DNA from: Amphiscolops sp. MND2022
Taxonomy: Eukaryota
Direction of reading: 5' to 3'
Assembly: GCA_964187785.1 (NCBI GenBank)
Contig: OZ076409.1
Location: 49,354,001 to 49,418,000 of the forward strand
DNA length: 64,000 nucleotides
A model generated the notes under the pieces. That model was not told where the DNA came from. It worked only from the letters and a program-made list of their open reading frames with translations, and ran no database searches. The position numbers and the translations under genes were made by a program. Below, one piece after another: positions 19,730-60,947 of the stretch. Position 1 is the stretch's first letter, and every line of letters starts with the position of its first letter.

Positions 19730-19770
19730 TGGTATTTGGTCGGTTAAAATTGAATTTACGGATAAAAGTA

Positions 19771-33609: not shown

Positions 33610-34294
33610 TGCGGCTTCATGAATATTCATAAAGTTTATAAACTAGTTAGTTAGAATTTTGTTAGATCTATGCTTAGTTACTTCTATTTTTTCCATCATG
33701 CTGGCATGACAATGACTCCCTAGGGTTCCTACAGACGGGCAAGGTCTGGTTAAATATCAAATCAACATTTACAATCCCTGGAAAATCCCGGAGATGCGTT
33801 GAAAAGCATTTGAGCAGAATTTTAACAAAAAACAGTCTAGACGCAAATGGGTAGCAACATCAGGACATTCATAATCATATGAAGCTTGACGTCTATGAAA
33901 CTCAAAACTTTTTGTTACTAAACCAGAAACTCAATTTTTTTTTCAGAAAAAGCAGACTCTTAAAGTGGCAAGTTTTTCTTCTAGTCACCCTGTAAAATCC
34001 ACTTTTAGTAATTTTTGAATACGTCATAAATTTGATTTCAAATTGATATGGGGCCACGTTTTGGTCCAGGGGTTAACTCGGATTTCCAGACATGGTCACG
34101 GGGTGTGAGAACTAGTAGGACGTAGGTTGGAGTTTCGCGGTGAACCAATTTTTCATGCTTGCAAATGTAGTGACTGTAAAGGGTTGCTCCTCTGGATTTT
34201 TCGGTGCTAAGCGACACGTTTCGAAGTTTTTTTTTCCACCTTAGGACTTTTTAGCACAATGCGACTCACCAAAGACAATTGTTGAAAAAGTCTT

Positions 34295-36621
34295 TGTCAC
34301 AGCCCGCTCCCGGTCTGGCTTGTGGTTGCAGACGGCTGAAGATTGGGAGAGGACACGGAGGTAATCTGAGATTCCCCAAATCTTATTTTAACTGGTAACT
34401 CTAAAACTTTATCCTTGAAATAAACTGTGACTAGAAATGCGAAAGCACAACTAAACTGCGCAAATTTCAACTGGAAATGAAAACAGAGAACAAAATGAAC
34501 CAAAATGATTTCACGCATTTCCGGCAAGACGCGTTTGTCACGTCAAAATAGCAACATTCGCCACCTGGAAACTAAATTGAATTACATTCTAAAACAAAGA
34601 AAGCATGGTCTAATCTAAATGAAAACGTAGTCAAAATCATCTTCCAAAAGAACATTAATCAGATCTAAAATAGAAAATACACCGAGATGACACACCGATT
34701 TGGTTTAAGCCCTTTTCTTAGAAAGGCAGCTTAATTACTCTTTGAACAGCAATTAAAATGATTTAGGACGTCAATACTGCGCTGAGTAAACAAAGCGGCA
34801 AAAGAAATAAGAATACATGTATATTTGTCGTCAGTAGGACGCAGACAAGTTTGAAGGCATACCAATTGACGTCACTGCCTCGCATACGCGTACCAGCAAA
34901 TCATTCCAATTATCCGCCTATACTAATAACATTGCTAGGAATCATTCCAATTTACCGCCACTGTGACGTCACTGCGCCGGCAGCTAGCGAGAGATTCATT
35001 TCTGAAATACTCGTCAGCATTGCGTCAAACTAGTCAAAATCTCTACTCTGCCAAGAAAACTCGTCAACATGACGTTGACAAGTTTATGAAATTGAATAAA
35101 GTGAATGAATTTGCTGAATTTAGTCAAGTTTTCATCGCGCAAATGCCGTTATTTCCTAAGGAGAGAAAATTGCAGACTGTTGCAAAGTGTATAACGAAAG
35201 CATTGTTGATTTTCCATGGTTTAAGGTCCCAATTTAGAATGCGTTTTGGCACATATAGGATAATTTCAACCCCACGTTAAGTAACAATCATGTATTCTTA
35301 ACGATAAAGGAATTTCCGCGCATAAACCATCTTATTACAAGATCTCACAGTAGATTAATTAGGAAGTCACAGTTTATTCTCTCCAACTAAAAGCATATTG
35401 TGTACCAGAAATGTATTTCTCATATATTTTGCATTTTTGTACTCTACAACATTGAACGCTGTACTTCTGATTGTGATCATGTTTTTCCATTATAGTACCT
35501 CCGTTGCTGTCCAGGTATTTACCTTGTGTTAGTGCTGTTATTTAACAAACGTTGTTGTTAATTTTGTAAATCTTGTCGTGTTTGACACGACATGACAAAG
35601 TTGCTAACAAAGTATTATTTTCATATCATGATTTCATTCCCATCTCTAGCAAAAGATTGAGTCCAAATTCATAAAATATCGTCCTAGCATCGTTCAAATA
35701 TTCCTATTTTGGAATTAGTCATATCATTTTTATCAAAGCGAAATTCAAAATCAGGTATTTGTTGTTCACGTCAGCGTCATCTCAGCGTCATCTTCCCGCA
35801 AACCAAAGCAGTAAAACAGGGAAGCATTTCCGGTTTGACAGACTGAAGTAATATCTACTTCCTGCTTGGGAGGAAGCAAAAGGACGCCGGGATGAAATGA
35901 TATGATCATGTTTGATGACTAATACTAGTTTAAAATTGTCGTGTCTTAAAAATCGACGAAATGTCAGCGCAAATTTGGGAACTTTGTGATTTTTTCATCG
36001 ATAAAACAGGAAATGACTAATTGTTCGAAGGAAATTAGGGATTATGGTCGTGATCAAATGATGCTGGGAGGGTATAAATGTGATAGGATTTGATGATTAA
36101 GGGACTCAGTCTTTTGCAATTGTACAATTCAGTTGAATTTTCAATTTCACTCTCGCCTTTTTCTACTTTGTCAGAAAAATCTTTGAAAGAAATTCAATTC
36201 TTCAAGATCAAACTTTTCTACAAAATGTCAACAACAAGAAGCCAAAAAAGAAGGAACGATCAGCAAAGCACCAGTGAGAACGTAAGTGAAGGCTTGATTT
36301 CACCCATAGTAGTAGGAAATCCTTGTTCTTTGAATCAGGACGATGAAGTAGCGGGGCCTTCTAGACCAAAATCCCCCCGGATTGAGAATAGTCTCTTTGA
36401 AAGCTTGAGAACTTCCTTAAAGGAGGAAATAACGTCAGAGATTAAGAATCTTGTTATTGAATCCCAGAAGGAGATGTTGAAACTCCTTAAACCTGAAACA
36501 AGAGGGATTATTAGAGAAAATACCGAGGAAGAGGTAGAGGAGGAAACTAGAAGTTTCTATACTCCTACAAAATCAGTGAGAATAAGTTCTACTCAAAACG
36601 ATCCGATAGCATGTCGTAACA
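34295..36621 (+). repeat. 5' LTR of element 3 (2,327 bp)
   Basis: tgtcacagcccg...tgtcgtaaca; roughly 99% identical to 48034-50360 by eye. Confidence 0.95.
36073..36111 (+). promoter_or_regulatory. Putative LTR core promoter (TATAAA plus Inr-like TCAGTC)
   Basis: TATAAA at 36073 and TCAGTC at 36106, upstream of the gag ATG at 36225. The sister LTR retains a TATATA and gggactcagtcttt. Confidence 0.5.
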
Positions 36622-37664
36622 TGGTGACAGGAGTCCTAACCGATTCCACAAACCAGCCAAAAAGAACAAAGGCCAGGTCTCAGAGCCAACCGCCGTCAAA
36701 AGAACGTCCAGTAGTGGCAAGGACTTTATTTGCAACAGATAAAAATGATAGCACTACTCTGCCCATGCCAAAAGCACTCACGGCGTCACTCCCAACCTTC
36801 GATGGGAAGTCGGAAAATTTCGAGCTTTTCGAAGACCTTTTTCGCAATAATATCAAAATGTATCCACACCTTACGGAAATCCAAAAACTAAACTATTTCC
36901 ACTCCCTGCTCAGAGGAGATGCTTTACAAGCATTTTGTAATATCGAAGATACGAAAAAGGATTCCCTTGATGAGATCATGACGATTTTCAAACGACGTTT
37001 CGGAGATTATTTGTACATGGCCAAGGGAAGATGCGAATGGGATGAGCTCAAACTCGACCCCTCGAACCAGAAACTCCACGAATTTCTGGATGTACTTCAA
37101 AAAACCGCCAAAGAAGCCTTCGGCTCTGAAGCCCAACAATTTATTGATAAGGCGATCTATGCAAAAATGCCAGACCATGTAAAGAAAATAATAAATAGAG
37201 CGTACCTTGAAGACAAACCCTACAACGACATCGTACTGCATCTAGAAAGGGAAATGAGACTTAACGGCCTCGGGGCGCCAGATGAAGTAAACCTGGTACC
37301 ACTTAACAAAGTAGAACCGGCCCCACCAAACACTGAGTCCAAACAGGCCGACAACACGACGCAAAACACCAAGAAAGGGTATTGCTTCTACTGCAACAAA
37401 TTCGGACACTACAAAGCGGAGTGTAGGAAAATGAAAAGAGATAAATGGATGCAAACCAAGAGAAACAATGGCCAAACCAGCAGCAGTTCAGGCAAACCAC
37501 TTAAATGCGACACGTGCGGAAAACCCCACAAAACAGAAAATTGTTGGAATGGAGCCAATGCTGCCAACGATCCGCGTCCCAAGCGCCGCACTACACAGGA
37601 ACAAAAAAGGGACACCCCAGACCAGATGACAACAACCGACTTTGCCACCGAACCAAAAAACTAA
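36225..37664 (+). CDS. gag: Gag of element 3, starting inside the LTR
   Basis: aaaATG at 36225 (the same start is used in the sister ORF 53139..53558); LPTFDGK capsid-like region; knuckles CFYCNKFGHYKAEC and CDTCGKPHKTENC. An alternative in-frame ATG lies at 36621. Confidence 0.85.
   Translation: MSTTRSQKRRNDQQSTSENVSEGLISPIVVGNPCSLNQDDEVAGPSRPKSPRIENSLFESLRTSLKEEITSEIKNLVIESQKEMLKLLKPETRGIIRENTEEEVEEETRSFYTPTKSVRISSTQNDPIACRNMVTGVLTDSTNQPKRTKARSQSQPPSKERPVVARTLFATDKNDSTTLPMPKALTASLPTFDGKSENFELFEDLFRNNIKMYPHLTEIQKLNYFHSLLRGDALQAFCNIEDTKKDSLDEIMTIFKRRFGDYLYMAKGRCEWDELKLDPSNQKLHEFLDVLQKTAKEAFGSEAQQFIDKAIYAKMPDHVKKIINRAYLEDKPYNDIVLHLEREMRLNGLGAPDEVNLVPLNKVEPAPPNTESKQADNTTQNTKKGYCFYCNKFGHYKAECRKMKRDKWMQTKRNNGQTSSSSGKPLKCDTCGKPHKTENCWNGANAANDPRPKRRTTQEQKRDTPDQMTTTDFATEPKN
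36622..36636 (+). other. Primer-binding site of element 3 (TGGTGACAGGAGT; tRNA-Leu-like)
   Basis: TGG directly after the LTR terminal CA. The tRNA identity is inferred. Confidence 0.7.
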
Positions 37665-37712
37665 TTACGCCGAGCCTGCGTTTTGGGGAGAAAGTAGACG
37701 CGAGGGCGTATT
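37655..37712 (+). promoter_or_regulatory. -1 programmed ribosomal frameshift signal (A AAA AAC plus downstream stem-loop)
   Basis: Slippery heptamer at 37655-37661, in gag phase just before the gag stop; pol is in the -1 frame. TACGCC (37666) can pair with GGCGTA (37705), with an inner tgcgttt/agacgcg stem. Confidence 0.8.
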
Positions 37713-40700
37713 CAACCGAGGATCCCCCCACCACATACGTTAACAACACAACGATTGAATGCAATGACACACCAACTGAAGACTGGCTAAGACGACAAGC
37801 ACTCGCTTCTATAAAAAGGCCATATCCACAAACTGAACAAGCAGAAACCTACACTCACGATAAAGACTACAGGGACAATCCTAAACAACAAGCAAATCGT
37901 CCTACCAACTTACCCCTCATCAACAGAGAACTCTCCGCTACAAACCAGGTAGAACAAAATGAAAGCGCCTCCGACGACCGCCTATCGTCAAAACAAAATG
38001 AAGGAGATAATCACGACTCCACCAAGACTTTTCTGTCCCCAGACGATTTCCCCACATCACTCAACTCAATCAAGGAGTACGTAGCCGAAAAGGATGGAGA
38101 AACATATATACCTCTCCACTCCACTATATTCCTCAAGAGCAGAAGGAGAATGCTGTACTTGCCACTAGAATTCGGTGAAATAACAATGGATGGACTTGTC
38201 GACTCAGGTGCGTTCATCAATGCCATGTCCTGGTCAGACTACAACGCAATCAAAATGAATAGTGATAGTTGTGTCATAAAAGAATATCCTCAACCTCCCT
38301 TCAAAATCGAATGCGCAAACGCACAACTAGAGCAACCAATAGCAACAGCGGACATCCAGTTCAACATCGGAACATATACCTTCACGGATACCTTCGTCAT
38401 CCTATCGAAAACGTCATTTCCCATCATAGGATTGAACTTCATGAGAAATCACCAAGCAGTAATTGACACTGCCAACGGGACCAATAATTTCCCACACGTC
38501 GAAATGACGCTAGCCATGACGGACGAGACGAAAAAATGCAACCCGAAACCGCTCCAAATAATGGCAGAAGGAAATCAAACCCTACCGCCCCAACAAACAA
38601 CAACAGTGAACGCAATAGTAATAACCACAAACATGCATGACGTCACTGGTGCGGTACAACCATTACCACAATTTGATGAAGCAGCAACAATCATTGTTGC
38701 ACCAGCACTAGCGACAGCCCACAACAAAAGGCTCAACATCCGAATCGCCAACTTAACGGATTTCCCTCATACAATAAAGAATCACACAAAACTGGCAGAA
38801 CTACAAATCCTCAAACCCGAGGACACGAAACAAATACGACCAGTAGACGCCGCTGCACTCAAATTGCTAGAAGATCCTGATGACACCCACATGTACATCA
38901 ATGAACTCATGAAAGCCAAAAAAACTGAACAAGGTGAGGAAAATTTCTGGTTTCCCACACCTGAGAACCCGGGAAACGAAGAAGAACATACGCCAATCCA
39001 ACGACGGATCCTGAAGGAAATCCGTGAACTAATCCAGAGAGAAGAGTTAGACCCAACCAAAGACCAGGATTCAAGACAAAAGTTCCTTGACATGTTTCAG
39101 TGGGAAGGTTCTCAAATCGAAGGCAACGACAGAAAGCAACTCGAGCAAACAATAGTCGAATACAACGATATCTTTGCCCGCCATCGCCTTGATATTGGAA
39201 TCAACAATAGCTTCAAAGTCAAATTAACTCCGAAAGACGAGCGCCCAATTTACACGCAAAGCCTGCCGGTACCAATCAACCTGAAAGAAGATCTAACAGT
39301 TGAATAAGCACTAACGCATAGGTACGGCATAATAACGACCCTACCATTCTCAAAATATGCAAGCCCAATCTTCGCACAACGCAAACCGAATGGCAACTTG
39401 CGACTACTCGTCGATCTACGAAAAATAAACGCATTAATCTCAGACGACTACATCAACAATAACCACCCAGTCAGCACCCTGTCAGATGCAGCTCAACATC
39501 TAGCTGGGAAAAAATTGTTTTGCAAACTAGACTGCTCACAGGCATATCATTGCCTACAGATGGCAGACCAACGATCAATCGAAATGCTAGCCTTCAACTT
39601 TGCAAGCAGAACGTTCGCCTACAAACGCCTAGCACAAGGACTGAGCAGAGCCCTGTCGGCATTTTCAAGCTTCATGCGAGAATACTTGGATAAAGTAATC
39701 AAGGCCGACCAATGCGCGCAGTACGTGGACGACATCGGAATTGCGGCCAACTCTGTGACACAACTGATACGCAACATTCGAGCAGTTTTTGAATGCATCC
39801 GAAGAGCGGGACTCAAGCTAACCATCGAAAAATGCCATGCCATTTCGGGGTAACTGAAGTCGAATTCCTTGGAAGAACGATCACACCACAAGGAATCGCC
39901 CCGCAGGATCATAAAATTCAAAAATTCCTAGCAAATGTGAGATTTCCAAAATCCAAGAAACAAGTACAAAGATACATCGGTTTTGTCAATTATTATCGCA
40001 ACTACATCCCGAGACTGTCTGAGAAATTGCTCGGATTCTATGAACTACTGAAAGCAGACAAGCAAATCAAAATCACAGAAGAACTACTCGACCATTACAA
40101 AGCCATGAACGCAGCACTGGCGCAAGCTTGCGGTTTGGCACTCAAACAACCAATCACAGGACGACAGTACGTCCTGATGACGGACGCCAGCTTCCGAGCC
40201 TCTGGCTACGCACTAATGATTGAGGAAGACAACGACAAAAAACTCAATTCAAAAAAGAAGACATTTGCACCAGTCGCATTCGGATCAAAGGTGTTTTCCC
40301 CGGCTCAAATCAAAATGTCAATTTACTGCAAGGAATTTCTAGCAATCTATCACGCCTTCCTTGAATACAGCCATATTCTATGGGAAACAACCCTACCAAC
40401 TCTTGTGATGACCGACAACAGATCGGTAACGCGTTTCTTCCAAACAAAAGCAATCCCGCCTACTCTGTGGAATGCATGTGATTATGTACTACAATTCAAC
40501 TTCCACATAATGCACGTCGCGGGTACGCAAAACACGGCAGCCGATTTTCTGTCAAGAATTGATCTCAATCCCAAAGAAAGAGTTGAACTAAAAATCAGAG
40601 AGGATATTACAATCAGGCCCATCCAAGTGAATCTCCAATCAACGGACGTCGCGGATGAGGAACAACTTTTCTTCCTTCCGGATGAAACAATTGAAACGGA

Positions 40701-42597
40701 AGAAGAAATCCTATTGCAGAAAGAACAAACTAGACAAAATGCGCGCGACGAGGAGACGACCAAAATCAAAATAGCCATCAAAGAAACCACCCCAATCCCA
40801 ATAAATAAGGCATCTTATACCTTTGGGGCAATAAAGGAAGACGCACGTATTAGAGTCGAGCAAGACTCGAATTTGGTTTTCAAAGCAATCAAAAAGAAAT
40901 TGATATGTGAAGAATACGACAAACACCTTCTACAGACCGATCCGACAGCCAAGCGCCTCCTACTCCACGAGAACAGACTAATAGTGAAAGATGGAGTACT
41001 AATGCGCAAATATTACGAGGAATGTGGCCAAGTCACTCACCATCAAATTTTAATCCCCGAACATTTAATCACAGAACTCTTGAAAGCAATTCATGGACAA
41101 ATGGGAAAGCATCCAGGAATCACAAAAATGATCCAAGAATGCCGATCAAAGTACTACTACCCAGGATTAGCAAAGAAGATCAGACAGTGGGTAATGCAAT
41201 GCGAAGAATGCATCAGATACAAACGAATCAACAACAGCCAAATCCGACCAAAGATGATCAACAATACGGAACACGTCCTAGGTCCAGACGATATCCTAGA
41301 AATTGACATATTGCCGAACTTACCAAACTCCGCGGGATATCAAAACATCGTCACGATGATTGATGTCTTTTCACGTTACCTATTTGCATATCCAACGCAG
41401 AATAGCACAGCAAAAACAATAGGACGATGTATTGTCGACGTCATGACAAGACACGCATACTTGCCAACATTAACCTTATCAGACAAAGGCTCACAATTCC
41501 GATCAGAAATCGTCGCAGAGATAACCCAGATACTTGAAATTCAAATCAGCCACGCATCTACGAAGCATGCACAAACAATCGGAATTCTGGAAAGAACGCA
41601 CGCTTCAATCAAAACCGCCCTAAAAACGGGCGAACGACGCTCAATGTGGCACAAATATGTCCAAATCGCAGTGATGAATTACAATACAACATACCATGAA
41701 ACTCTGGGCTGCGAACCATCTACAGTATTTCACGGACGTATACCTTACAACGTTCTCGATTTAAAACTGGGCATCAAGCCAAAGTGGAAAACCACCCCCC
41801 ATTCGGATGTAGCAGAACAACTCCAAAAACAAATTGACGAAGTGCGAGCGACGGCAAAGGACAACATCATGCTGTCCTATCTCAAATACAAAAAATACTA
41901 CGACCGCAAAGCAACCGGGGCTCCATTAAAAATCAACGACTACTGCTATATACTTAACCCGAAAGCCGACAATCAGTCGACAAAGTTTGCGTTTCAAGAT
42001 TGCATCTGGACAGGACCGTATGTAGTAATCAAAGTGCTTTCAAACAACAACTACACAATACGAAAAATTGGCACAAGATATACACAAACACTACACAGAA
42101 TTCGCATACGACCTTACGTGCCAGAACAACGCTTGCCCGACGTCACAGTACGAGCCAACGACTACCTTCCTGACCCAGAAGTTACAGTCTCACACAATGA
42201 ATGGTATGCGGTATCATGGGAAATGGATTTTGGAAAGCAGATTGATGAACACGAAACATCGGAAAGCACAAGAAACAATCACCACGTAGAAATACGAGAA
42301 GTGACAAATGCAAACGACGGCAACACAACGCCACAAGCGTCAAATGATAACAGCGAAGATACAAATGACGAGGCACCGCCGTCCCCGGATTTTTCAAATC
42401 TTACTACGGACGTGGGAGATAACCCATACATACGCCGTCCCCCACCCCTTGAAAGCCCACCCATTCCCCCAAGAACACCGCCTACAGTTGTCGGATATAA
42501 CCCGAGACAAACAGCAAAGTACAATTTGAGACCTAATCCTAAGCCTAATGCTAATCCTGACTTCAGACGACTTGACGCTATGACTACGACTCACTAA
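37655..42597 (+). pseudogene. pol: Pol of element 3 (PR, dUTPase-like linker, RT, RNase H, IN) with two lesions
   Basis: LVDSGA protease, YVDD, TDAS, HHCC, DDE and GPY motifs. In-frame TAA at 39305-39307 and a 5-nt duplication (tgcca) at ~39833-39842 that shifts the frame. Confidence 0.92.
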
Positions 42598-42818
42598 AAG
42601 AAAAGATCATATCTGGAGTCCAGCCCGAACCGGACTGACAATTTTCCAATTTACAAGCATACTACAGCCTGAATAAACGTCTTTTTTTTCTTTTTTATAT
42701 ACAACTCCTACAGTCTACAATTTCATGTGGCACATCATAAAGCTACAAAGAAAATAAACAAAAGATATCAACACAACAACAACTAATGAAATCCGAGTTT
42801 ACTGCAACAAAACTGAAG

Positions 42819-45800
42819 TCATTTCTTCTTCGAGCCAGACGTAGCTCCTTTACCCGCAGATTGCTTTGACTTCTTCTTAGACTTCTTCACATCGACTACA
42901 TCAGGATCAACAGCACCTTTTTCACGTCCCAACAAAGAGGCAACACTCCCATACACCTTGGTCTTGCTGAATCGAAAGGAACTGGATCCACTAGACGAAG
43001 GGACAGGTGGGGCAGAAATAACAGACGCAGCTGGACTTTCAATCAAGGAGGAACCTTCGCAATCACCACCACTCTCGCCATAGGGTTGACCATCACTGAG
43101 ACTCCTTTTCCGACTCACTCGTTCATCAAACAGACGACGATATCGATTGACGAAAGCAGATTGATTCACCCCACATAAACCGTCCCATGGATCAAACCCA
43201 CCAGACGACATAAAAGTACTGGCAGTAGCAATTGCTTTCCGCACTTCATTCATCGTAAACTGGGTAAAGAAGGACTTCAACCTAAACTCAGATGACACAA
43301 CGCAACTTTGAACACCTTGCACACAGGATGCAACCACGTGAGACGGAACAGCACAATCGCTGAGATCAATCTCCACAGCAGGAAAATCAATGCGAGGCCT
43401 CAATACTGCCAGACAACATAGTTTGAACACGCTACACAATGACTTGCGCGCCAGAAAGCAATAGTCGGACAAAAGATAATGCCTTACGTCACTGATTGAC
43501 TCAGCACTGACTCCACTATTGGCATGCCGAGACCGGGCATCCACAACCAAGTTTGAATACTCCTCCACGGCTGCTTTCGACTCTCGCGAAGAGACAACTC
43601 CACTCCGCTCCAATACTCGAATCAATGTCTGGAACAATACTAGCATATGTTGATCGTCCCCTTCGAGTAACAATTCAGGACAGAAACAGTAAACGCCCTG
43701 AGGAAGCTCTCCAGTAACGGGCTGCTGACCCAAAATGGCGATAACTAGGCGATCAATAAATTTAGGACAAAGATCCTGGAAGACGCGAAACTCTCCTCCT
43801 TTGTGACTACGCAACACAGCACCAAAATCATGGTTATGAAGGAAATCACAGGAAGCAACATTTTCGAATCCGTCCAATTTCTGTAGGTCCATGTAACCCT
43901 CCCACGAATTCAGACTCGGCAACGACCCAAGTTTACGACTTCGTGACAGAAGACAGTACACAAATTGGCAAATTTCCATGTAACCATGGAAACCATAATC
44001 ACTTCGCCCTGAAGACTGCTTCTTGAACGAACAGGAATCTGAAACACAAGACACACCATCATACTCGGCACTAGCCATTTTTTCCTCACCCCCACACAGT
44101 ACTACGCAAGAACATCACACAAATACCACTATCTCGCGAACTGCAAATACGATACACCACAACAGCATACTCACGAAGTTCAAGCACATGCAGAAAAAGA
44201 CCCAGGTGCAACCCTCCAGTAGCCTCAGAGTACACATGCCAGTCAGTGCAACGCATCTACAACAACAAATCGCCAACAGTCAACAACACCTATACCTGTG
44301 CGAACAACAATATACGAAACGATCAGCTACGCAAACAAGACAAAATCATTACCCGGCCAGCAGCAGTTTTGAAATGTCGGGGTCCAGTGTGTCTCACAAA
44401 ATCCTGAACAGACGACCACACTGAGATCAAGTCAGCAACTACACCTCGTAGATCAGCGAATTTGACATGCCCAGCAATGATGCATCGTCGGAGACACAAC
44501 GTACTCTCGCACCAGGGCTCTTGAATTGCACCCCGCAAGCGCAGCATCAAAAAGTCCACCATGGCAGTTGTTTCCAGTCCACCAAAAACCTCCTGATGCG
44601 CGAGCTGATAGCAATGCAAGAAGACGTCCACAGTGAATTCCCGATACATCAGAAACTCTCGCCCGTCAACGCGATTGTCACTTAGAATCCTCAGCAAGGT
44701 AGGACTACAGCCCTGACATGACAAAGGCATCTGGCATGACGCAGTGCTATCAATGACACGTGACAAACCAGCCAAGTCAGCCTCGGGAATGCGTTGCCCA
44801 GAAGCCTCAACCCTCACACAAATGCTCATCAGGGTATGCTCATCAAAGGTCTGCACGAAACACTTGTGGTACCCATCGCTCTCCATGAAAGAAACACTGT
44901 ACTCTCGGAAAGCGCCAATTCGAGCGAACAAGGAGCGCAACACACGAGGGAACAAAGCCTGGCAGATCAGCGACTAAAACACAAAAAATTTTTTTCCAAC
45001 ACATGAGGCCCGATACAAAGATGAGCCTGCGCACTCTACATACAACCCCCCCCCTCACGAATAACAAATACTAAACTGCCGGACATTTTGACTTACTAAC
45101 CAACGACTCAGGACGACTCCAGTGCACATTGTATAGTGGGTTCTCGGGACCCAGTGTCGCCCGGAAACACCCCCACAATCTTCGCAACAGAAGGTAACTG
45201 CCACCAAACCGCAACAGCTCGATCAGACAGTTCACCATTGACATCAGGGGCACACTGGAATCGGCTTGCACACAGGCAGGGAGCAAGTCCTCAGGAAAAC
45301 TAAACCCCTCATTTTTCCCTTTGTTAGGTCGATTGCGATATTCCTCCAGCTGAGCGTCACTGAGCACCATTGGGTCCATCAGACGATTAAATACCGGCAG
45401 ACCATTTTGAACACGATAGGTCACATCCAGCAACCAGTGCCGTTTTCCGAAGAAGTGACGACTGAACTCTGCTACCCCACGTGACTCCATGGACACGTCC
45501 CGCTGGCAAATCATGCAGTGAAACATCTTAGCAGAACCAGTGCTGGAACCACTGACAAAGAGCTCATATATCGGATTGCCAGTGACCATATCGCGACGAA
45601 GACGATTCCGAGGGCTGTACACTCGCTTACGACCACGATCGGCACTCTCCAAGGTCGTCTCCATACGGCTGATTAGCTCCTCAAACCCTGTAACAACCAA
45701 ACTCTGGCATCATGAAACTCAATTAGAAGACGTACGCCACCCGGAAGAGGAAAAAAAAGAAAAAAAGGAAAAAGAGAAAAACAGGGAAAAGAAGGAAAAA

Positions 45801-46944
45801 GATGCCTAACATCTATCAACAGACGAAAAGAATATCAAAATAACTCCACCAATCCAACTGAACTTACGTGCAACGAACGGATCCAAGGCATGTCCTTCTA
45901 CGTCGGAAAGTCCTCCAGACGACACCCCGACTTGCTGTGCGGGTGTAAGAGGCAGCACACCACTAATGCCCTGCTCATCGTCACTGTCGTCCACACGGAA
46001 CCGAATTATGGGAGCGCCAAACTGGAAAACAGTCTCAGCAGGCTGTTCTGACGCTGATCGCATCTCTGACCCGCTCCCGTCGGGAATCATCAATTGCACT
46101 ACAACAAGTTAGTTACAGTTAAGACATAATACCTCCTCACATAACAAAGCGACAAGAGAAGGACATAACCTCAGAAACACGCCAATGGCAATTGACCTAC
46201 ATGAGAATACACAAATATCATATAAATATCAAAGCAACAATACGACAACTCACCACGTTTGACTTTGGTCCCTCCGTCGCCAGAACTTCCTTCTGTTCTC
46301 TTTCGACGAAGAAACGATGAGAATCGAGGAGAAACAGTTTTCTGCCCTTCAGCATTTCTCTGAGCAGGGGGGGATAACCCCTCACCTCCGCGAGAGTCCA
46401 TCTTGTCGACCGCGTTGGCCACCTTAGCAAGAGCCGCCAGAGGAACGTCTGAATCTTCAGAACAACACGTAGGAATGACCGAAGCAGCGGGAGGAGAAAC
46501 CTCAGTCACTATCTCACCACCCCCATGTGTTGACTCTGCGAGAGGCTCGAGACTAATTCCAGAGAGGTCACCAGGGAGAGAAGCCCTCAACTCAGCGACA
46601 GAACCACCAGCCAGAGGAGGTGAAGGAGTCGGATCTAGCAACAAACAAAACAATCCCGTGTTGACGCGTCAGAAAATCTAAGCTGTGAAAATACCATAAA
46701 CCAGAAGAGGCCTATCTGTCACAAGTGTTATTCACAAAAGCTTAATGGACCGGGGAAGAATAAGCTCACCTGTTGCTTGCCGACGAATGACATCCCCATC
46801 ACGCTGGTAGATGTCCCCCTCAGAGAAAACAAACTGAGTTTCATTACCACTCTGAGCTCCGGTATCACGCTGAAGGGAAGGAGGATTCTGATCCAAAAAA
46901 AAACAGCTGGGATCTGAAAAAACAGCCGAAATTGACGTCGGCAT
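42819..46944 (-). CDS. Spliced antisense accessory gene of element 3, ~1,098 aa: BED-like zinc finger plus hAT-transposase-like body and Lys-rich tail
   Basis: Predicted exons 46944-46770, 46634-46254, 46098-45868, 45687-45101, 44973-44353, 44256-44175 and 44038-42819. All six introns are GT-AG and join into one stop-free 3,297-nt frame. The same junctions and phases occur in the sister copy. The start codon is uncertain. Confidence 0.8.
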
Positions 46945-47190
46945 AACGTCGACAAAAAGGTTACCTGGGTTAAGAAATTAATCCGATACCCTAAAATGGC
47001 GTCATAAAAACGGTGACAAAATCAAAAGTTAGCTAAGCTAGCGAAATTGACGTCGGCATAACGTCGACAAAAAGGTTATCTGGGTTAAGAAATTAATCCG
47101 ATATCCTAAAATGACGTCATCAAAACGGTGACAAAATCAAAAGTTAGCTAAAGCTAACGAAAATGACGTCAGCATAACGTTGACAAACTT
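46927..47190. repeat. ~115-bp tandem repeat (x2.3) rich in GACGTC/CRE-like sites
   Basis: Units start at 46927, 47042 and 47158 (cgaaattgacgtcggcataacgtcgacaaa...). Confidence 0.85.
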
Positions 47191-47414
47191 GGCTAAACGG
47201 ATTAATTCAATTTGCAGCCAATAGAAAACGACGTTGGCACTGCGTCAACACCTAAAGATTAAAAAGGATTAAAACGATCGATTAACCAATCAGAATGGAG
47301 GGATTTTATCCCAATATTCTCCTTAATCCTAATTAATCCCAAATTCATTGTGGAACAATCAAAGGAGAAATTCAGCAACCCTACAACTCACGACTCGACA
47401 ACGGCAGAGCAAAA
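46945..47414. promoter_or_regulatory. Putative internal bidirectional promoter
   Basis: Lies between two divergent ORFs; contains the tandem repeats and CCAAT boxes (agccaatag ~47216, aaccaatcag ~47285); strongly conserved in the sister at ~56274-56745. Confidence 0.5.
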
Positions 47415-48137
47415 ATGAACTCTCTCAAAAACGTATACGAGCTAATCGACATTTCGTCCAGCGAAGATGAAAGTGAACCTGTGGAGAGATCGTCGACCCC
47501 TCTTCACAGAGAGACGCTGCCTAACTATAGAGTAATACTAAAAAATTCCCTCTCCTCTGCAGAAGCCGTGGCTGATGAAGAAGAATATTTCGACGTGTCA
47601 GCAGACTCGCTTGAAGCAAGCTACAAAAGGATAAGACTGAATTCAAGTCTGTCCTCCATTGACTCTAGCTCCTACCCTCAACGAGAAGGGAATGCAGTAA
47701 CACAAGCAGGTGAAGAAATCCCGGACAGTCCTGAAAGCCCGGACGAAAGCATGTCGTCGGATGTGTTCATCGTGGAGGAAGCCATTGGCAACGAGCCATC
47801 ATTCTCGGGCAGCAAAGTCATGGAATACCTCGAAAAGGTACACCAAGAAGATTCATCATCATACTTTGTCACGCCACCAGGAACTCTCAGAAAGATAAAT
47901 TTCACTCACGCGAGCCCATTAAACGATCTCGAAGCGGAACGCAGCTTTAACGGCTCGGAAGAAACTGAGATGAGACCACCACCACTTACGTTTTTGCCAA
48001 GACAACCAGGTGTTTTCCCCAGAGGAGCGGCCCTGTCACAGCCCGCTCCCGGTCTGGCTTGTGGTTGCAGACGGCTGAAGATTGGGAGAGGACACGGAGG
48101 TAATCTGAGATTCCCCAAATCTTATTTTAACTGGTAA
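47415..48137 (+). CDS. 240-aa acidic, Ser-rich accessory protein with SUMO-interacting-motif-like N-terminus, overlapping the PPT and 3' LTR
   Basis: Intact in both copies (sister 55563..56273, 236 aa). The first 20 codons differ by 8 synonymous and 0 non-synonymous codons. Confidence 0.85.
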   Translation: MNSLKNVYELIDISSSEDESEPVERSSTPLHRETLPNYRVILKNSLSSAEAVADEEEYFDVSADSLEASYKRIRLNSSLSSIDSSSYPQREGNAVTQAGEEIPDSPESPDESMSSDVFIVEEAIGNEPSFSGSKVMEYLEKVHQEDSSSYFVTPPGTLRKINFTHASPLNDLEAERSFNGSEETEMRPPPLTFLPRQPGVFPRGAALSQPAPGLACGCRRLKIGRGHGGNLRFPKSYFNW

Positions 48138-50360
48138 CTCTAAAACTTTATCCTTGAAATAAACTGTGACTAGAAATGCGAAAGCACAACTAAACTGCGC
48201 AAATGTCAACTGGAAATGAAAACAGAGAACAAAATGAACCAAAATGATTTCACGCATTTCCGGCAAGACGCGTTTGTCACGTCAAAATAGCAACATTCGC
48301 CACCTGGAAACTAAATTGAATTACATTCTAAAACAAAGAAAGCATGGTCTAATCTAAATGAAAACGTAGTCAAAATCATCTTCCAAAAGAACATTAATCA
48401 GATCTAAAATAGAAAATACACCGAGATGACACACCGATTTGGTTTAAGCCCTTTTCTTAGAAAGGCAGCTTATATACTCTTTGAACAGCAATTAAAATGA
48501 TTTAGGACGTCAATACTGCGCTGAGTAAACAAAGCGGCAAAAGAAATAAGAATACATGTATATTTGTCGTCAGTAGGACGCAGACAAGTTTGAAGGCATA
48601 CCAATTGACGTCACTGCCTAGCATACGCGTACCAGCAAATCATTCCAATTATCCGCCTATACTAATAACATTGCTAGGAATCATTCCAATTTACCGCCAC
48701 TGTGACGTCACTGCGCCGGCAGCTAGCGAGAGATTCATTTCTAAAATACTCGTCAGCATTGCGTCAAACTAGTCAAAATCTCTACTCTGCCAAGAAAACT
48801 CGTCAACATGACGTTGACAAGTTTATGAAATTGAATAAAGTGAATGAATTTGCTGAATTTAGTCAAGTTTTCATCGCGCAAATGCCGTTATTTCCTAAGG
48901 AGAGAAAATTGCAGACTGTTGCAAATTGTATAACGAAAGCATTGTTGATTTTCCATGGTTTAAGGTCCCAATTTAGAATGCGTTTTGGCACATATAGGAT
49001 AATTTCAACCCCACGTTAAGTAACAATCATGTATTCTTAACGATAAAGGAATTTCCGCGCATAAACCATCTTATTACAAGATCTCACAGTAGATTAATTA
49101 GGAAGTCACAGTTTATTCTCTCCAGCTAAAAGCATATTGTGTACCAGAAATGTATTTCTCATATATTTTGCACTTTTGTACTCTACAACATTGAACGGTG
49201 TACTTGTGATTGTGATCATGTTTTTCCATATTAGTACCTCCGTTGCTGTCCAGTTATTTACGTTGTGTTGGTACTGTTATTTAACAAACGTTGTTGTTAA
49301 TTTTGTAAATCTTGTCGTGTTTGACACGACATGACAAAGTTGCTAACAAAGTATTATTTTCATATCATGATTTCATTCCCATCTCTGGCAAAAGATTGAG
49401 TCCAAATTCATAAAATATCGTCCTAGCATCGTTCAAATATTCCTATTTTGGAATTAGTCATAGCATTTTTATCAAAGCGAAATTCAAAATCAGGTATTTG
49501 TTGTTCACGTCAGCGTCATCTCAGCGTCAATTTCCCGCGAACCAAAGCAGTAAAACAGGGAAGCATTTCCGGTTTGACAGACTGAAGTAATATCTACTTC
49601 CTGCTTGGGAGGAAGCAAAAGGACGCCGGGATGAAATGATATGATCATGTTTGATGACTAATACTAGTTTAAAATTGTCGTGTCTTAAAAATCGACGAAA
49701 TGTCAGCGCAAATTTGGGAACTTCGTGATTTTTTCATCGATAAAACAGGAAATGACTAATTGTTCGAAGGAAATTAGGGATTATGGTCGTGATCAAATGA
49801 TGCTGGGAGGGTATAAATATGATAGGATTTGATGATTAAGGGACTCAGTCTTTTGCAATTGTACAATTCAGTTGAATTTTCAATTTCACTCTCGCCTTGT
49901 TCTACTTTGTCAGAAAAATCTTTGAAAGAAATTCAATTCTTCAAGATCAAACTTTTCTACAAAATGTCAACAACAAGAAGCCAAAAAAGAAGGAACGATC
50001 AGCAAAGCACCAGTGAGAACGTAAGTGAAGGCTTGATTTCACCCATAGTAGTAGGAAAACCTTGTTCTTTGAATCAGGACGATGAAGTAGCGGGGCCTTC
50101 TAGACCAAAATCCCCCCGGATTGAGAATAGTCTCTTTGAAAGCTTGAGAACTTCCTTAAAGGAGGAAATAACGTCAGAGATTAAGAATCTTCTTATTGAA
50201 TCCCAGAAGGAGATGTTGAAACTCCTTAAACCTGAAACAAGAGGGATTATTAGAGAAAATACCGAGGAAGAGGTAGAGGAGGAAACTAGAAGTTTCTATA
50301 CTCCTACAAAATCAGTGAGAATAAGTTCTACTCAAAACGATCCGATAGCATGTCGTAACA
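48034..50360 (+). repeat. 3' LTR of element 3
   Basis: Direct repeat of 34295-36621; preceded by an atypical PPT, AGAGGAGCGGCCC (48021-48033). Confidence 0.95.
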
Positions 50361-50989
50361 GTCTTCGATATATTATCCCACAATTTTCGTTTTTTGAGAA
50401 GTTTCCGGTTCAAGAAAACCGTTTTCCGAGTTTCTAGGGTGATCTCTGAATTTTAATCACTTGGGGCTGATGAGAATTTAGCCATTAACAGTTCAAAAGT
50501 ACTGCAGTTGTTTTTTAGCACTGTGTAACTTTCGAAACAATTCACGGTAAAGCGATACGCGCTTCACTTTGAAAAAAGCTTTCATCTGATATTACCCGTT
50601 TTGCAAACTTGAAAGGTCTCCATTTGGGTTACTGGCTTTACAGGTTTTCGAAAGAAAAATTGAATGGTTTTTTTGAAATGTGTTCTTAGATAATTTGAGT
50701 TAGGTAAAAGCGGTTTTCGGGTCTCATGTATTTTAGGCACGGAAACTTCGTTGAAAGATTCGAAATATTTTTATTTTGCGTAGTTGAAACGCTTTATTCC
50801 GTTTGAGCTTCGAGCAGGTCGCCAAATTGTGCCATTGCCGGCTTCTCAAATTACCGACCAATAAGTCTCTTGAGTTCAATAGGGAAGATCTTCGTGAAAC
50901 GTTTGCACAAATATATGGTCAAATGTTGCACAAAAGAGAACATTATAACACATATTCAATATGGTTTCAGCAAGAAATGATCATGCATT

Positions 50990-53179: not shown

Positions 53180-55666
53180 TGTTACGACTAATGTTCGGGT
53201 CGTTTTGAGTTGAACTTATTCTCACTGATTTTGTAGGAGTATAAAAACTTCTAGTTTCCTCTTCTACCTCTTCCTCGGTATTCTCCCTAATATTTCCTCT
53301 TGTTTCAGGTTTTAGGAGTTTCAACATCTTCTTCTGAGATTCGACAAGAAAATTCTTGATTTCTGACGTTATTTCCTCTTTCAAGGAAGCCCTCAAACTT
53401 TCTAAGAGGCTGTTTTCAATCCGGGGGGATTTTGGTTTAGAAGGCCCCGCTACCTCATCGTCCTGGTTTAGAGAACAAGGATTTCCTACTACTTCACTTA
53501 CGTTCTCACTGGTGCTTTGCTGATTGTTCCTTCTTTTCTGGCTTCTTGTTGTTGACATTTTGTTGTAGAAAAGTCTGACCTTGAAGAATTGAATTTTTTT
53601 CAGAGATATTTACTAATAAGGTTAAACAAGGCGAGAGTTTAGTGAAATTGAAAATTCAACTGAATTGTTCAATTGCAAAAGACTGAGTCCCTCAGCCAAC
53701 TAAAATCATCGTATATATACCCTCCTAGCATCATTTGATCACGAGTTAAAATCCTAATTTCCTTCGAACATTTAGTCATTTCCTGTATTTTCAGTGCAAA
53801 AATCATTTTGTTCCCAATTTTGCGTCGACATTCCGTCAAATTTTGAGACACGGCAAATCTAATCTAGCATTAGTCATCAACCATAATCATATCATTTCAG
53901 CTCGGCGTCCTTTTGTTCCCTCCCAAGCAGGAAGTAGATATTACTTCAGTCTGTCAAACCGGAAATATTTCCTTGTTTTGCTGCTTTGGTTCGTAAGAAA
54001 CTGACGCTGAGATGACGCCGGCATGAACAACTAATGCCTGATTCTGAGATTTCGCTCGAGGAAAAAATGCTATGACTAATGTTTTCAGCTCTGCACTTTC
54101 CAACGATGCTAAGAAGAAATGAGAACAAGATTAAAGAATTAGCAACAATCTCAACTTAGTTTCAAATTGAATGATTAATGATTAACGAAATAAAACAACG
54201 ACACATTGACGCTTGATGAATTGATGGACCAAATTGTCTAATTCAGACTTCTGTCCTAATTTATTAATATTTCAATCACAAATACTGTCTAATATTTTTT
54301 TAGCGTCAATTTAATGATTATACATAACACGCTGTCAACAGATTTTAACTTGCACATATGATAGTAATTTTGAACATAAACGTCTGACGACGCGGGGACG
54401 GCACTTTATGGATTTGCTGAACAGGCAAAAGTTCAAAACCTTCTATCACTTGATCCCAATCATTACAAAATGTACAATAGCGACACAAAACATTTGTTCT
54501 GAATTTATGCACATTGGGGTTAAAATAATGACCGTCCTGATTAGGAAACGACGACGACACAACAAAGTTTTACCACACGCTTTATGTAGTACAAAATACA
54601 AACATATGAAAATATATTTCCAATACGAAAATACCATCGATTTACTTTCGTCATGCCCATAAACTGTGACTTTCACTTACATGATACAGGAAATTCCATT
54701 TCAAATTAAGTTTTAGAGCAAAATTAAACCGGCAAGGGAAATGTTTGACGGAAACGTGGCGTTGGTCCTCAAATCCTTCACTAATCGTCTTGTTAAATTA
54801 TCATATACCTTAAGCGTATTCCTAGTACTGATTAATTTGAATGGTATTCATCATATCTTTTTGGATGGATTAAAACAGCCTGCTTTGGTGGAATTTGGAC
54901 GTAACGTGGACGTACGTATTAGTACTAGGCCTGGTCCAGTATAGTGGACGTAACGTGGACGCAAATTTGAAGTGAGAATTAGCTGTCTGACAGCACCGTG
55001 ACGTCACAATGGCGGAAAATTGGAATGATTTCAGAGTAGTGTCACTAATATAGGCAGTAAATTGGAATGGTTCTCTAGTGAGCGCGGACGGAACGGTGAC
55101 GTCACACTATATACTTTCAAGTCTGCTTCTTACCGACGTCTAATGTACATGTATTCTTATTTTGTTTACTTAGCGCAGTGCCAACGTCCTAATCCGCACT
55201 AATTGCTGTTCAAAGTGCAATTAAACTGCCTTTCTTAGAAAAGGTGTAATTATTTCAGTGTGTCATCTCAATGTACTTTCTATTCTAGATTCAAATAATG
55301 TCCTTTTTCCAATGGCGATTTTGGGTATGTTTTCGTTTAGATCGGTCTATGGCCCTTATTTCACGACGTGTTTTAATTTAGTTTTCAGGTGGCGAATGTT
55401 CTTATTTTGGCGCACTAAAGACGTCCCACCGGAAATGTGTGAAATCATTTTAGTTCATTTTAGTTTCTGTTCTCATTTTCGTTTAAACTTTACGTAAGTT
55501 AGGCGTGCGTTTTCGTATTTCTAGTCACAGTTTATTTAAGATTAGGGTTTAAAGTTTTCAAGTTAGTAATTGAAATACCATTTGGGGAATCGCAGGCTGC
55601 AACCATGGCCTCTTCCGATCCCCACTTGTCTGCAATGACAATCCAGTCCGGGATCGGGCTGTGACA
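53180..55666 (-). repeat. 3' LTR of element 4 (2,487 bp)
   Basis: Minus-strand tgtcacagcccg...gtcgtaaca; PPT AGAGGAGTGGCCC at 55667-55679; contains the Gag N-terminal ORF 53139..53558. Confidence 0.9.
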
Positions 55667-56273
55667 GGGCCACTCCTCTGGAGAAAACACCTGGTTGTCT
55701 TGGCAAAAACATAAGTGGAGGAGGCCTCATCTCAGTATCTTCCGGGTCGTCAAAACTGCGTCTCACTTCGAGATCGTTTAGTGGGCCCCTCATCTTCCTG
55801 GGGGTTCCTAGTGGCGTGACGAAGTATGATGAGGAATCTTCTTGGTGCACCTTTTCAAGGTATTCCGCGACATTGCTGCTTGAGATTGATGCTTCGTTAC
55901 TGATGGCTTCTTCTGCGACGAACACATCCGACGACATGCTTTCGTCCGGGCTTTCAGGACTGTCTGGAATTTCTTCACTTGTTTGTGCTACGTCGTTCCC
56001 TTCGTGCTGTGGGTAAGAGTTAGAATCGATGGAAGACAGACTCGAATTCAGCTTTACCCTCTTGTAGCTTGCTTCAAGCGAGTCTGCTGACACATCAAAA
56101 TATTCTTCCTCATCAGCTACAGCTTCTGCAGAGGAGAGGGAATTTTTTAGTATTACTCTATAATTGAGTATCGCCTCTCTAGGAAGAGGGGTTGAAGATC
56201 TTTCCACAAAGTCACTTTCGTCTTCACTTGACGAAATGTCAATTAACTCATAGACATTTTTGAGAGAGTTCAT
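55563..56273 (-). CDS. 236-aa acidic SIM-like accessory protein of element 4
   Basis: Collinear homolog of 47415..48137; intact; crosses the PPT into the LTR. Confidence 0.85.
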   Translation of the reverse strand: MNSLKNVYELIDISSSEDESDFVERSSTPLPREAILNYRVILKNSLSSAEAVADEEEYFDVSADSLEASYKRVKLNSSLSSIDSNSYPQHEGNDVAQTSEEIPDSPESPDESMSSDVFVAEEAISNEASISSSNVAEYLEKVHQEDSSSYFVTPLGTPRKMRGPLNDLEVRRSFDDPEDTEMRPPPLMFLPRQPGVFSRGVALSQPDPGLDCHCRQVGIGRGHGCSLRFPKWYFNY

Positions 56274-56748
56274 TTTGCGTCGTCGTTGTTGAGTCGTATG
56301 TTATAGGGCTGCTGAATTTCTCCTTCAATTGTTCCACAATGAATTTGAGATTAATTAGGATTAAGGAGAATTTTGGGATAAATCCCTCCATTTTGATTGG
56401 TTAATCAATCGTTTTAATCCTTTTTAAACTTCAGGTGTTGACGCTGTGCTAACGCCGTTTTTTATTGGCTGCAAATTGAATTAATCCGCTTAGCCAAGTT
56501 TGTCAACGTTATGCTGCCGTCAATTTCGTTAGCTTAGCTAACTTTTGTTTTGTCACCGTTATGATGACGCCATAATAGGTTATAGGATTAATTTCTCAAC
56601 CCTCATAACCTTTTTGTCGACGTTATGCCGACGTCATTTTCGTCGATATTTCAATCAACTTTTAGTGCCGACGTTATGCCGGCGTCAATTTCATTGGGGT
56701 TTAACCAACTTTTAGGTTTTGTCACCGTTATGATGACTTCATTTTTGG

Positions 56749-59700: not shown

Positions 59701-60768
59701 TGGGCAGCATACATGGATTCAGAGAAGATCAAGGCATTTAGGAAGATCGACACTGCCAGCTTCTTGTTAAATTATGAGTTTGGAGAAGAGTTGCAACGTG
59801 GGTCAACTGGTGAACTTAAAGAATTCCGTAATCGATGTCGTGAATTTATGGACCGCTTGGTGGACGTCCTCCTGGAGAATAATCTTGTCTCTTCAGATTT
59901 TTACCGGGTGCATACTGTTTCTGCCCTGAGCTTCTTCTTGAAGGAGACGACCGATATATCTTCCAGATGTTCAGCAAGTTGGATCAAGTTCTGGAGAGGA
60001 GCGGAGCTTTGAGTTGCGAGGAGGCGAAATCTGGCACAGAGGAATTTATGTCCTTTGTGGTGGACGCGCGCTTGCGCCATGCTGGATCGGAGAGTAGTGC
60101 CAAGAATATCTCTGTTGTGGTAACATATCTGCTCTCGGATTACAGCTTTTTATCACAAAAGAATTTGTGCCGGATCTTCAAACTGTGTTATTTCGTTATT
60201 CGACGTCCCGCTTGCGATTTCCCTGCAGTGATCATTTCGTTAAATGACTGCGCCGTGCCGGAGTCTGTGGTGTCATCCTGCTTGCGTGGAGTGCAAAGTT
60301 ATGTTTGCGCTTCCAGCTTCAAGGTGCAGTCATTGTTCACGCAGCACACTATGGAATGCGTTGGGGATTCTTTTTCCGGAGCCCGCGATTTTATGGCATC
60401 CGGTTCCAATTTCGACCCGTGGGCTCGTATATGCACGAGTGATCGCTCTGCTTTTGTGCAGCGTCATTCGGAGTTATTCAGTGCTCATTTGGACCGGAAG
60501 AAGGAAGCCTCTTATCAACGTTTCCGCACTGCTAATCAGCGTGTTAGGAGTGGTGTGTCCGGTGTTGGTCAGGCTGGCGTGAGTCTCGAGTCGTCCAGAG
60601 GACGCTCTGCCCGCAGTAGTTCTGTCGCTTCAAAAGGTGGTAAATCGTCGACCAAGCAGCTATTACTTCAGGGTCCTGGGTCTTCTAGTGACACTGCTCC
60701 CACGGCAAAGGTTGGAAAAAAAATCCAAGAAGCAGTCTGGTAGTGCATCCGGGTCAAAGAAGAATTGA
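56749..60768 (+). pseudogene. Spliced antisense accessory gene of element 4 (disabled copy)
   Basis: Exons ~56749-56914, 57040-57420, 57572-57784, 57933-58525, 58651-59269, 59415-59496 and 59567-60768, with the same phases as element 3 (the first donor reads GCAAGT). Stops at 57333, 57676 and 58777; frameshifts near 59253, 59905 and 60722. Confidence 0.8.
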
Positions 60769-60947
60769 AAGCACAATTGAAAACGTAAACTTTATTATAG
60801 TATGTTTTATTGTTTCGTCTGTGATTTGTTGTCAGTTTGTTTCGTTGAAAACAGAGAGTTAGATGAAGTAGAAGGGTCATAGTATGCCTGTAATTAGAAA
60901 TTGTCAGATCGGTTCGGTCTGGACTCTGAGTATTGTCTTTCCTCTTT

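Follow-up and report, generated by a model that had tools for sequence, protein, structure and literature searches.

A Gypsy retrotransposon lineage of Amphiscolops sp. carrying a spliced antisense gene with a predicted hAT transposase fold

The genome of Amphiscolops sp. MND2022 harbors a lineage of Ty3/Gypsy long terminal repeat (LTR) retrotransposons whose region between pol and the 3' LTR is occupied by a two-gene accessory module. The first gene lies on the antisense strand, is split into multiple exons and encodes a protein predicted to adopt the fold of a hAT transposase. The second is a small open reading frame in sense orientation (ORF2) that ends within the LTR. The lineage is represented by a 16-kb element in a stretch of 64,000 nucleotides, hereafter the window (assembly GCA_964187785.1, contig OZ076409.1, positions 49,354,001 to 49,418,000 of the forward strand). 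The original prediction, made from the window sequence, had described the order LTR, gag/-1 frameshift/pol, spliced antisense gene, spacer with repeats and CCAAT motifs, ORF with a SUMO-interacting motif (SIM), LTR. This order is borne out by the coordinates (Table 1) and by conserved splice sites; the identification of the antisense product as a predicted hAT-like protein is new. We favor, with a probability of about 0.55, a reading in which a domesticated, reverse-inserted hAT gene and ORF2 would form a nuclear, DNA-binding and SUMO-linked activator or anti-silencer that keeps the element transcribed.

Distribution of the module

The 1.07-Gb assembly was searched with an antisense exon, the reverse transcriptase (RT) and ORF2, and the best 100 of 7,443, 150 of 20,517 and 150 of 1,300 candidates respectively were retained; these totals are lower bounds and not copy numbers. 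Telomere arrays were looked for at the ends of 20 contigs, and none was found. Every fifth of the best 150 RT matches was then taken, giving 30 copies of 19 kb each that are all 97-99% identical in RT protein and therefore constitute a sample of close relatives. All 30 exhibit a long repeat pair, matches to the antisense gene and a match to ORF2; two carry deletions in the antisense gene and one resembles a tandem array. The two-gene module had been proposed to be lineage-wide, and no close relative devoid of it was found among the sampled copies, which do not reach the outer edge of the lineage. The recent activity initially suggested is also apparent: the LTR pairs of these copies have a median identity of 99.6% (97.7-100) and, counting the window copy, gag and pol are both fully open in 11 of 31. 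A slippery-type heptamer (A_AAA_AAC) precedes the gag stop in all 11 open copies, with the expected -1 relation in 10 of them.

Through a natural homologue of 890 amino acids (aa), P0193, a second family was identified in this genome, a clade in which the antisense gene is intron-poor. It is 81-84% identical to the window element in RT and about 50% in the RNase H-integrase (RH-IN) region. In each of the seven copies retrieved, the antisense gene is flanked by pol and a sense ORF of about 210 aa. Complete LTR pairs of about 2 kb are present in five copies; in another the pair is split, and in the last none occurs within the stretch retrieved. Four further pol types were selected from an integrase tree, a quick tree with one long outgroup that served only to choose clades. 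Three of them were found in this genome, and family profiles of the antisense gene matched at all 15 of the corresponding pol-picked loci; a sense ORF follows the antisense gene at 14, the remaining locus being rearranged. The fourth type has only 60-61% matches here and P0193 only 47-53%. Because these matches are so distant, relatives of the element probably exist in other hosts.

Searches that started from the antisense gene gave a similar picture. The 13 further loci picked in this way (the window's own among them) all adjoin pol, and none of 20 antisense-picked loci places the gene outside a Gypsy element. The module is the norm for this lineage. An association with a single RT clade, raised as a check in the original prediction, does not hold, as the module is found in at least five pol clades and occurs in alleles that have been reshuffled relative to RT (see below). 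The lineage is very abundant and young, with search candidates in the thousands (lower bounds, as above). An even younger burst than that of the window's family is seen in the P0328 pol clade, where 72 or more copies match at 98-100% in protein and many have an open frame of 1,741 codons.

Structure and conservation of the antisense gene

The module was aligned for 26 copies, namely the window copy and 25 of the 30 RT-picked copies (three of the five omitted have large insertions or deletions and two resemble copies that were included). Exons are ungapped and vary at third codon positions; introns are gappy. Splice sites are of the GT-AG type. Of the 26 copies, 25-26 preserve each of six donors and five acceptors; the two acceptors of the variable 5' part are preserved in just 10 and 17. 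The seven coding exons are open and in phase, with 1,077 whole codons and four split ones. Across the alignment, 22 copies have an open exon 4, 24 an open exon 5 and all 26 an open exon 6, and exon 7 is longer than 300 codons in 19. The first acceptor is followed by an in-frame ATG in 24 of the 26; the window copy is among the two that lack it. Since a conserved acceptor precedes exon 1, a non-coding exon is likely to exist upstream. No conserved donor for this exon occurs in the spacer; a candidate located in the LTR (position 48632) is kept in 12 of 20 copies. A second donor-like site within exon 2 (46385, - strand) is kept in 23 of 26 copies, and alternative splicing is possible at this point.

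Exons 4, 5 and 7 align in order on natural single-ORF homologues (E 1e-18 to 1e-32). On P0273 they correspond to residues 35-212, 215-411 and 451-857 (E 1e-27, 8e-26 and 1e-31). At the level of alignment, the order of exons 4-7 is confirmed by these natural intron-poor relatives. Intron number varies by clade: the intron between exons 6 and 7 is missing in one subfamily (L041/P0006), exons 4-7 form a single ORF in clade 2 (L075-L088), and clades 4-5 (L099-L103) have longer N-terminal exons. Such differences amount to intron loss or gain within a retroelement. The N-terminal antisense exon of clade 4 also includes a SIM-like stretch (L096, 3405-4820, - strand).

Judging from codon substitutions, the antisense gene is under purifying selection. 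Median pairwise ratios of non-synonymous to synonymous substitution (dN/dS) are 0.18, 0.20 and 0.10 for exons 4, 5 and 7; of 325-378 pairs, just 20, 102 and 27 respectively were unsaturated and entered these medians. The values for comparison are 0.09 for the LTR part of gag, 0.02 for its capsid part and 0.01 for RT.

Predicted fold and catalytic state

The antisense protein is predicted to fold as a hAT transposase of the Hermes type. An AlphaFold2 model of the intron-poor relative P0273 (49 rows) has a mean predicted local distance difference test score (pLDDT) of 79.9 and a predicted template modeling score of 0.69, and exhibits an RNase H-like core with a large helical insertion and a C-terminal region. 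In a Foldseek comparison with PDB, ranks 1-10 are all Hermes transposase (probability 1.00, best E 2.2e-4, TM to target 0.40-0.58) and rank 13 already falls to a probability of 0.07. VIA-align, run on 48,161 chains, returned Hermes with Z 12.9 (root mean square deviation 5.2, 403 aligned residues), followed by the ISCth4 transposase with Z 7.0. The sole match with E<0.001 in a viral structure library is a hAT-family protein (E 7.8e-5). These three results rest on the one P0273 model and are not independent. Language-model neighbors in the Atlas belong to hAT/ZBED clusters (0.79-0.84, all below 0.9) and are a lead only; the Atlas gave no usable match for exon 5. Pfam was uninformative for the antisense exons, ORF2 and their homologues, and PDB sequence profiles gave no match for alignments A2 and A6. 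A viral capsid match obtained with the A1 profile (best E 2.8e-4, alongside other weak zinc-finger matches) was rejected because it contradicts the fold result.

A BED-like C2H2 zinc finger is predicted in exon 4. The four ligands of its C-x2-C-x16-H-x5-H motif are kept in 26, 25, 24 and 26 of 26 copies, and the motif fits the BED signature CX2CXnHX3-5(H/C) given in the available text of PMC7471704. No Pfam match to zf-BED was obtained for this finger.

Catalytic residues have probably been lost, and the protein is likely unable to cut. In hAT enzymes the second catalytic Asp stands at the end of strand 4, before a glycine. In clade 2 the column at the end of strand 4 is occupied by R/Q/L/E/H, in the window clade by Q/E/R/H, with no conserved Asp in either (alignments A6 and A2). 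The end of strand 1 is mostly non-acidic in clade 2, and the segment expected to carry the third acid is modeled as a loop. Terminal inverted repeats flanking the antisense gene were not found; the module includes only four short inverted pairs, two of which are poly-T/A.

ORF2 and the spacer

The ORF2 proteins of the five clades are acidic and rich in Ser and Pro. A strict SIM-like pattern (a hydrophobic core followed by a run of Ser or acidic residues) is present in 35 of 49 ORF2s compared with 0.3 in shuffled sequences, and is distributed over clades 1 to 5 as 25/29, 0/6, 5/5, 2/4 and 3/5. The motif usually stands at the start of the protein and is likely to bind SUMO. The ORF2 stop is located 30-39 codons into the LTR in 28 of 29 clade-1 copies, after a conserved tail (C-x-C...GRGHG), and dN/dS is 0.07 (29 unsaturated pairs). 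The absence of env noted in the original prediction is supported on two counts: no env-like ORF was found on the + strand of the window element, and none of the 49 ORF2s has a membrane segment (maximum 19-residue Kyte-Doolittle values of 0.3-1.4).

In clade 1, the 550 bp ahead of ORF2 contain 6.8 TGACGT-type sites, similar to the cAMP response element (CRE), compared with 0.19 in shuffled sequences, and 3.1 CCAAT motifs compared with 1.1. The clade 3 values are 2.6 and 2.8. The first part of the LTR also has 4.1 TGACGT-type sites. Median conservation of the spacer reaches 85%, against about 60% for the genes on both sides. The spacer would act as a bidirectional promoter, and is likely to serve as a recombination site as well.

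Exchange and age of accessory alleles

Accessory alleles and backbones have different histories. Exon 5 is less than 85% identical in 30 of 49 pairs of copies whose RTs are at least 95% identical, and the same is true for 29 of 44 pairs with ORF2 and 9 of 23 pairs with integrase (IN) at this level. Six of ten supported RT splits clash with supported exon-5 splits (FastTree, 26 copies). Moreover, the proportion of differing synonymous sites is saturated in the accessory genes (0.72-0.79) and not in gag-pol (0.45-0.62). Together with the shuffled pairs, this indicates that old accessory alleles circulate among young backbones. They were probably exchanged by template switching in conserved segments.

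Possible role of the module

The reading that we favor can be outlined as follows. A hAT element would have entered the pol-3' LTR interval of an ancestor in reverse orientation, and the introns, because they are oriented against the genomic RNA, would outlast reverse transcription. The transposase would have ceased cutting and been retained as a DNA-binding scaffold, in the manner of host ZBED/DREF proteins. Divergent transcription of the antisense gene and ORF2 may start from the CRE/CCAAT spacer (alternatively, the 3' LTR could drive the antisense gene). The dead transposase would bind element DNA, ORF2 would engage SUMO-dependent chromatin factors, and the two would jointly oppose host silencing. 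The old alleles, reshuffled by template switching, may reflect a contest with host defense. According to the available text of PMC7471704, ZBED1, which derives from hAT, acts as a SUMO ligase; it SUMOylates and removes Mi2-alpha, so that target genes stay active. Silencing by PIWI-interacting RNA (piRNA) in Drosophila requires SUMOylation, which links piRNA targeting to heterochromatin (bioRxiv 2021.07.27.453956, available part). A more ambitious version, which we put forward tentatively and find somewhat harder to credit, is that a class II enzyme was recruited and domesticated by a class I element: this Gypsy radiation would use a dead, intron-bearing hAT and its SUMO-binding partner as a swappable anti-silencing cassette, ancient alleles of which are shuffled relative to gag-pol in an arms race with small-RNA/SUMO silencing by the host.

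Several observations weigh against the favored reading. Neither Pfam nor PDB sequence profiles give a hAT match. The folded protein, P0273, is a relative that shares 26-36% identity with the window exons; the model obtained for the window clade itself (a natural 735-aa read-through frame with intron-derived filler) has a pLDDT of 53 and weak integrase matches only, none at E<=0.001, and VIA returned helical hairpins only. The catalytic positions are putative, being set from secondary structure and Hermes anatomy rather than from a residue alignment. An invariant acid lies near the strand-1 end, one position on, in the window clade (E in 13 and D in 5 of 18), and D or E occupies position 668 in 41 of 45 rows. 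The SIM-like motif is missing in clade 2, CRE/CCAAT motifs are at most weakly enriched in clades 2, 4 and 5, and saturated synonymous sites indicate age, not positive selection.

Another explanation is that the dead hAT protein assists integration by binding cDNA ends, integrase or target chromatin, thereby steering nuclear import or insertion sites, with ORF2 providing a tie to SUMOylated chromatin. hAT proteins such as Hermes bind transposon ends and multimerise, and the antisense protein retains its finger and basic tail. The accessible part of PMC7264820 proposes that the antisense ORFs of plant elements take part in nuclear import. A tight integrase partner would however not be expected to swap its alleles freely against near-identical pol, as seen in the IN pairs above, and we regard this explanation as unlikely.

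Slightly less plausible again is self-restraint, in which the antisense transcript and the dead transposase repress the element, by promoter occupancy or double-stranded RNA, and so spare the host. Convergent transcripts would overlap the genomic RNA, CRE-like sites are enriched in LTR and spacer alike, and HBZ of HTLV-1 is a spliced antisense repressor that works at such sites. Dual protein and double-stranded RNA roles are also discussed for plant elements (PMC7264820, available part). On the other hand, the lineage is extremely abundant and young, and its deep, reshuffled allelic diversity suits evasion better.

A hAT that is still active, either as a DNA transposon nested in the retroelement or as a nuclease used by it, is very improbable and already largely refuted. 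The full hAT fold is kept, at least as predicted, and some acidic positions are conserved; however, the gene lacks terminal inverted repeats and the strand-4 Asp, it keeps a constant position and orientation over five clades and was never found on its own at the antisense-picked loci, and the target-site duplication of 5 bp is that of a Gypsy integrase. Finally, we hardly credit an env substitute for cell-to-cell spread, since ORF2, in spite of its env position, is acidic, Ser-Pro rich and without a hydrophobic segment, and the antisense protein has a predicted transposase fold.

Comparison with known elements

The closest precedent is provided by the plant Retand/Tat elements (Retand, Grande, RIRE2), which likewise belong to Gypsy, have a long stretch from pol to the 3' LTR, carry antisense ORFs in almost every active copy and contain tandem repeats (PMC11963269; PMC7264820; here and below, statements drawn from PMC sources refer to the portion of each text that is available). 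Grande gene23 has its own internal promoter and encodes a nuclear protein, and a regulatory role is proposed (PMC11963269; PMC7264820). For the plant TRP28/Transposase_28 ORF, no resemblance to any other known transposable element (TE) is reported, and its origin is called unknown in these portions (PMC11963269; PMC7264820). The Amphiscolops elements differ in having a multi-exon gene with a predicted full hAT fold and a second, sense gene reaching into the LTR, and neither the window exons nor their homologues match Transposase_28 (PF04195) in Pfam.

The antisense protein shares with hAT transposases (Hermes) and ZBED/DREF proteins a predicted fold, over the residues aligned with Hermes, a predicted N-terminal C2H2 finger and a likely re-use as regulator. 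Unlike them, it is borne by a retrotransposon rather than by an element with terminal inverted repeats or a single host locus, it has no Pfam match, and no Asp is conserved at the presumed second catalytic position. The coding U5 end is not new, as Ty1 also has a gag start within the LTR and a coding primer-binding site; Ty1 is however a member of the Copia superfamily, with a short LTR and no such module. Compared with Errantivirus and other env-bearing Gypsy elements, a sense ORF3 with signal peptide and transmembrane helix is lacking. The organization had been likened to that of a complex retrovirus, which is apt for the layout and goes no further. In HTLV-1, HBZ is similarly a convergent antisense gene downstream of pol, with CRE-like sites and coding sequence extending into the LTR; the Amphiscolops element has no env, Gypsy RT and IN, and unrelated accessory proteins, so that the likeness is an analogy only. 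The antisense promoter of HTLV-1 is mentioned in PMC7264820.

Among animal LTR elements, the bdelloid Juno and Vesta carry extra ORFs other than env that are common to several clades (PMC5408684). These extras are a GDSL esterase or a DEDDy exonuclease, and the available text of PMC5408684 contains neither "transposase" nor "intron". Planarian Burro elements are giant retroelements of more than 30 kb (PMC11410931). No account of an LTR element with an antisense coding gene that is spliced or derived from hAT was found in the open-access literature; the search did not extend to subscription journals or to Repbase, Dfam and GyDB.

For the plant antisense ORFs, the available portions of the reviews describe the origin as unknown and capture from another TE as unsupported (PMC11963269; PMC7264820). 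The present lineage offers a case with a recognizable source, a predicted DNA transposase kept under selection across clades by a retroelement and not by the host. It shows that introns can persist in a retroelement when they face backwards, and vanish in some branches. It also makes it possible to test directly whether SUMO-directed factors that counter silencing are encoded by TEs, and a young family of this size is likely to shape the 1.07-Gb genome.

The window element and its surroundings

By every testable feature (LTRs, target-site duplication, primer-binding site, polypurine tract and order of pol domains) the window element is a Ty3/Gypsy LTR retrotransposon (Table 1). Its LTRs, delimited by self-comparison, have TG...CA termini and are 98.9% identical, with 26 substitutions and no insertion or deletion between them. 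The clean duplication and near-identical LTRs of the original prediction are thereby recovered, as is its claim that both LTR ends are coding. Of the mismatches, 10 are transitions and 16 are transversions, with two adjacent AT/TA swaps among them, which is unusual. Assembly error or mutational bias is possible, which makes dating by LTR divergence unsafe. The priming tRNA may be tRNA-Leu.

Gag matches DUF1759 with an E value of 1.6e-9, above the cut-off, and its zinc knuckle is weak. The pol domains follow the Gypsy order protease (PR)-RT-RH-IN, with a Gypsy-type RH and an H2C2 integrase. Despite the DUF1759 match, Peptidase_A17, a marker of BEL/Pao, had no match in the window element in the domain profile search. 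The window copy is not intact, with a premature stop and a frameshift in pol, in addition to the missing start codon of the antisense gene. Just after pol (42598-42930), an AATAAA on the + strand follows the pol stop in 14 of 20 clade-1 copies, a count made without shuffle control; this gives a hint of an early poly(A) site, at which the gag-pol mRNA could terminate ahead of the module.

Table 1. Features of the Gypsy element and of its neighbor in the window (positions in the 64,000-nucleotide stretch)
Feature	Position	Strand	Remarks
5' target-site duplication	34290..34294	+	5 bp, GTCTT, same as 50361-50365
5' LTR	34295..36621	+	2327 bp, TG...CA; CRE-like and CCAAT motifs in first part
gag	36225..37664	+	479 codons; first 132 within LTR, frame crosses primer-binding site
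Primer-binding site	36622..36634	+	13-mer start common to clades 1 and 2
pol (PR-RT-RH-IN)	37505..42597	+	broken here: stop 39305-39307, frameshift near 39840
-1 frameshift heptamer	37655..37661	+	A_AAA_AAC type, immediately before gag stop
Antisense exon 7	42819..44038	-	helical insertion/C-terminal part of predicted hAT-like fold; basic low-complexity tail
Antisense exon 6	44175..44256	-	82 nt; joined to exon 7 without intron in one natural subfamily
Antisense exon 5	44353..44973	-	predicted RNase H-like core; no conserved Asp at strand-4 end
Antisense exon 4	45101..45687	-	predicted zinc finger (BED-like) and helical domain
Antisense exon 3	45868..46098	-	acidic/Ser-Pro, variable; open, in phase; donor 26/26, acceptor 17/26
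Antisense exon 2	46254..46634	-	low complexity, variable; open, in phase; donor 26/26, acceptor 10/26
Antisense exon 1 (first coding)	46770..46913	-	conserved acceptor ahead of it; start codon missing in window copy
Spacer	46914..47414		115-bp repeat x2.3; TGACGT (CRE-like) and CCAAT motifs
ORF2	47415..48137	+	240 aa, acidic/Ser-Pro; N-terminal SIM-like motif; last 34 codons in 3' LTR
Polypurine tract	48021..48033	+	short, imperfect, within ORF2
3' LTR	48034..50360	+	2327 bp
3' target-site duplication	50361..50365	+	GTCTT
Sister element, inverted	53180..64000	-	more decayed, same module; extends beyond window

The diverged sister element, described initially as inverted and 2.8 kb away, indeed begins 2,820 bp from the window element with the same layout; when the neighboring stretch is included, its LTRs are 96.7% identical over 1,996 bp. 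Its 5' LTR is adjoined by clade-2-like gag/PR matches, and a clade-2 antisense gene is found just past it, about 14 kb beyond the window (G000:C1:49431846-49434392), which may mean that related elements are clustered or nested here.

Two other LTR elements of the window (14069-20027 and 26562-31866, both - strand) are ordinary young Gypsy elements. Their lengths of 6.0 and 5.3 kb are too short to hold the module, and their LTRs of 239 and 190 bp are 98.7% and 100% identical respectively. The remaining repeats include a tandem satellite with a 181-bp unit (3923-5107) and two mutually inverted arrays of a 16-bp unit with about 10 and 11 copies (21086-21808), which resemble foldback elements or miniature inverted-repeat transposable elements. 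A dispersed repeat of about 440 bp has several copies in the window (6835-7279, 31996-32185 and 52042-52968).

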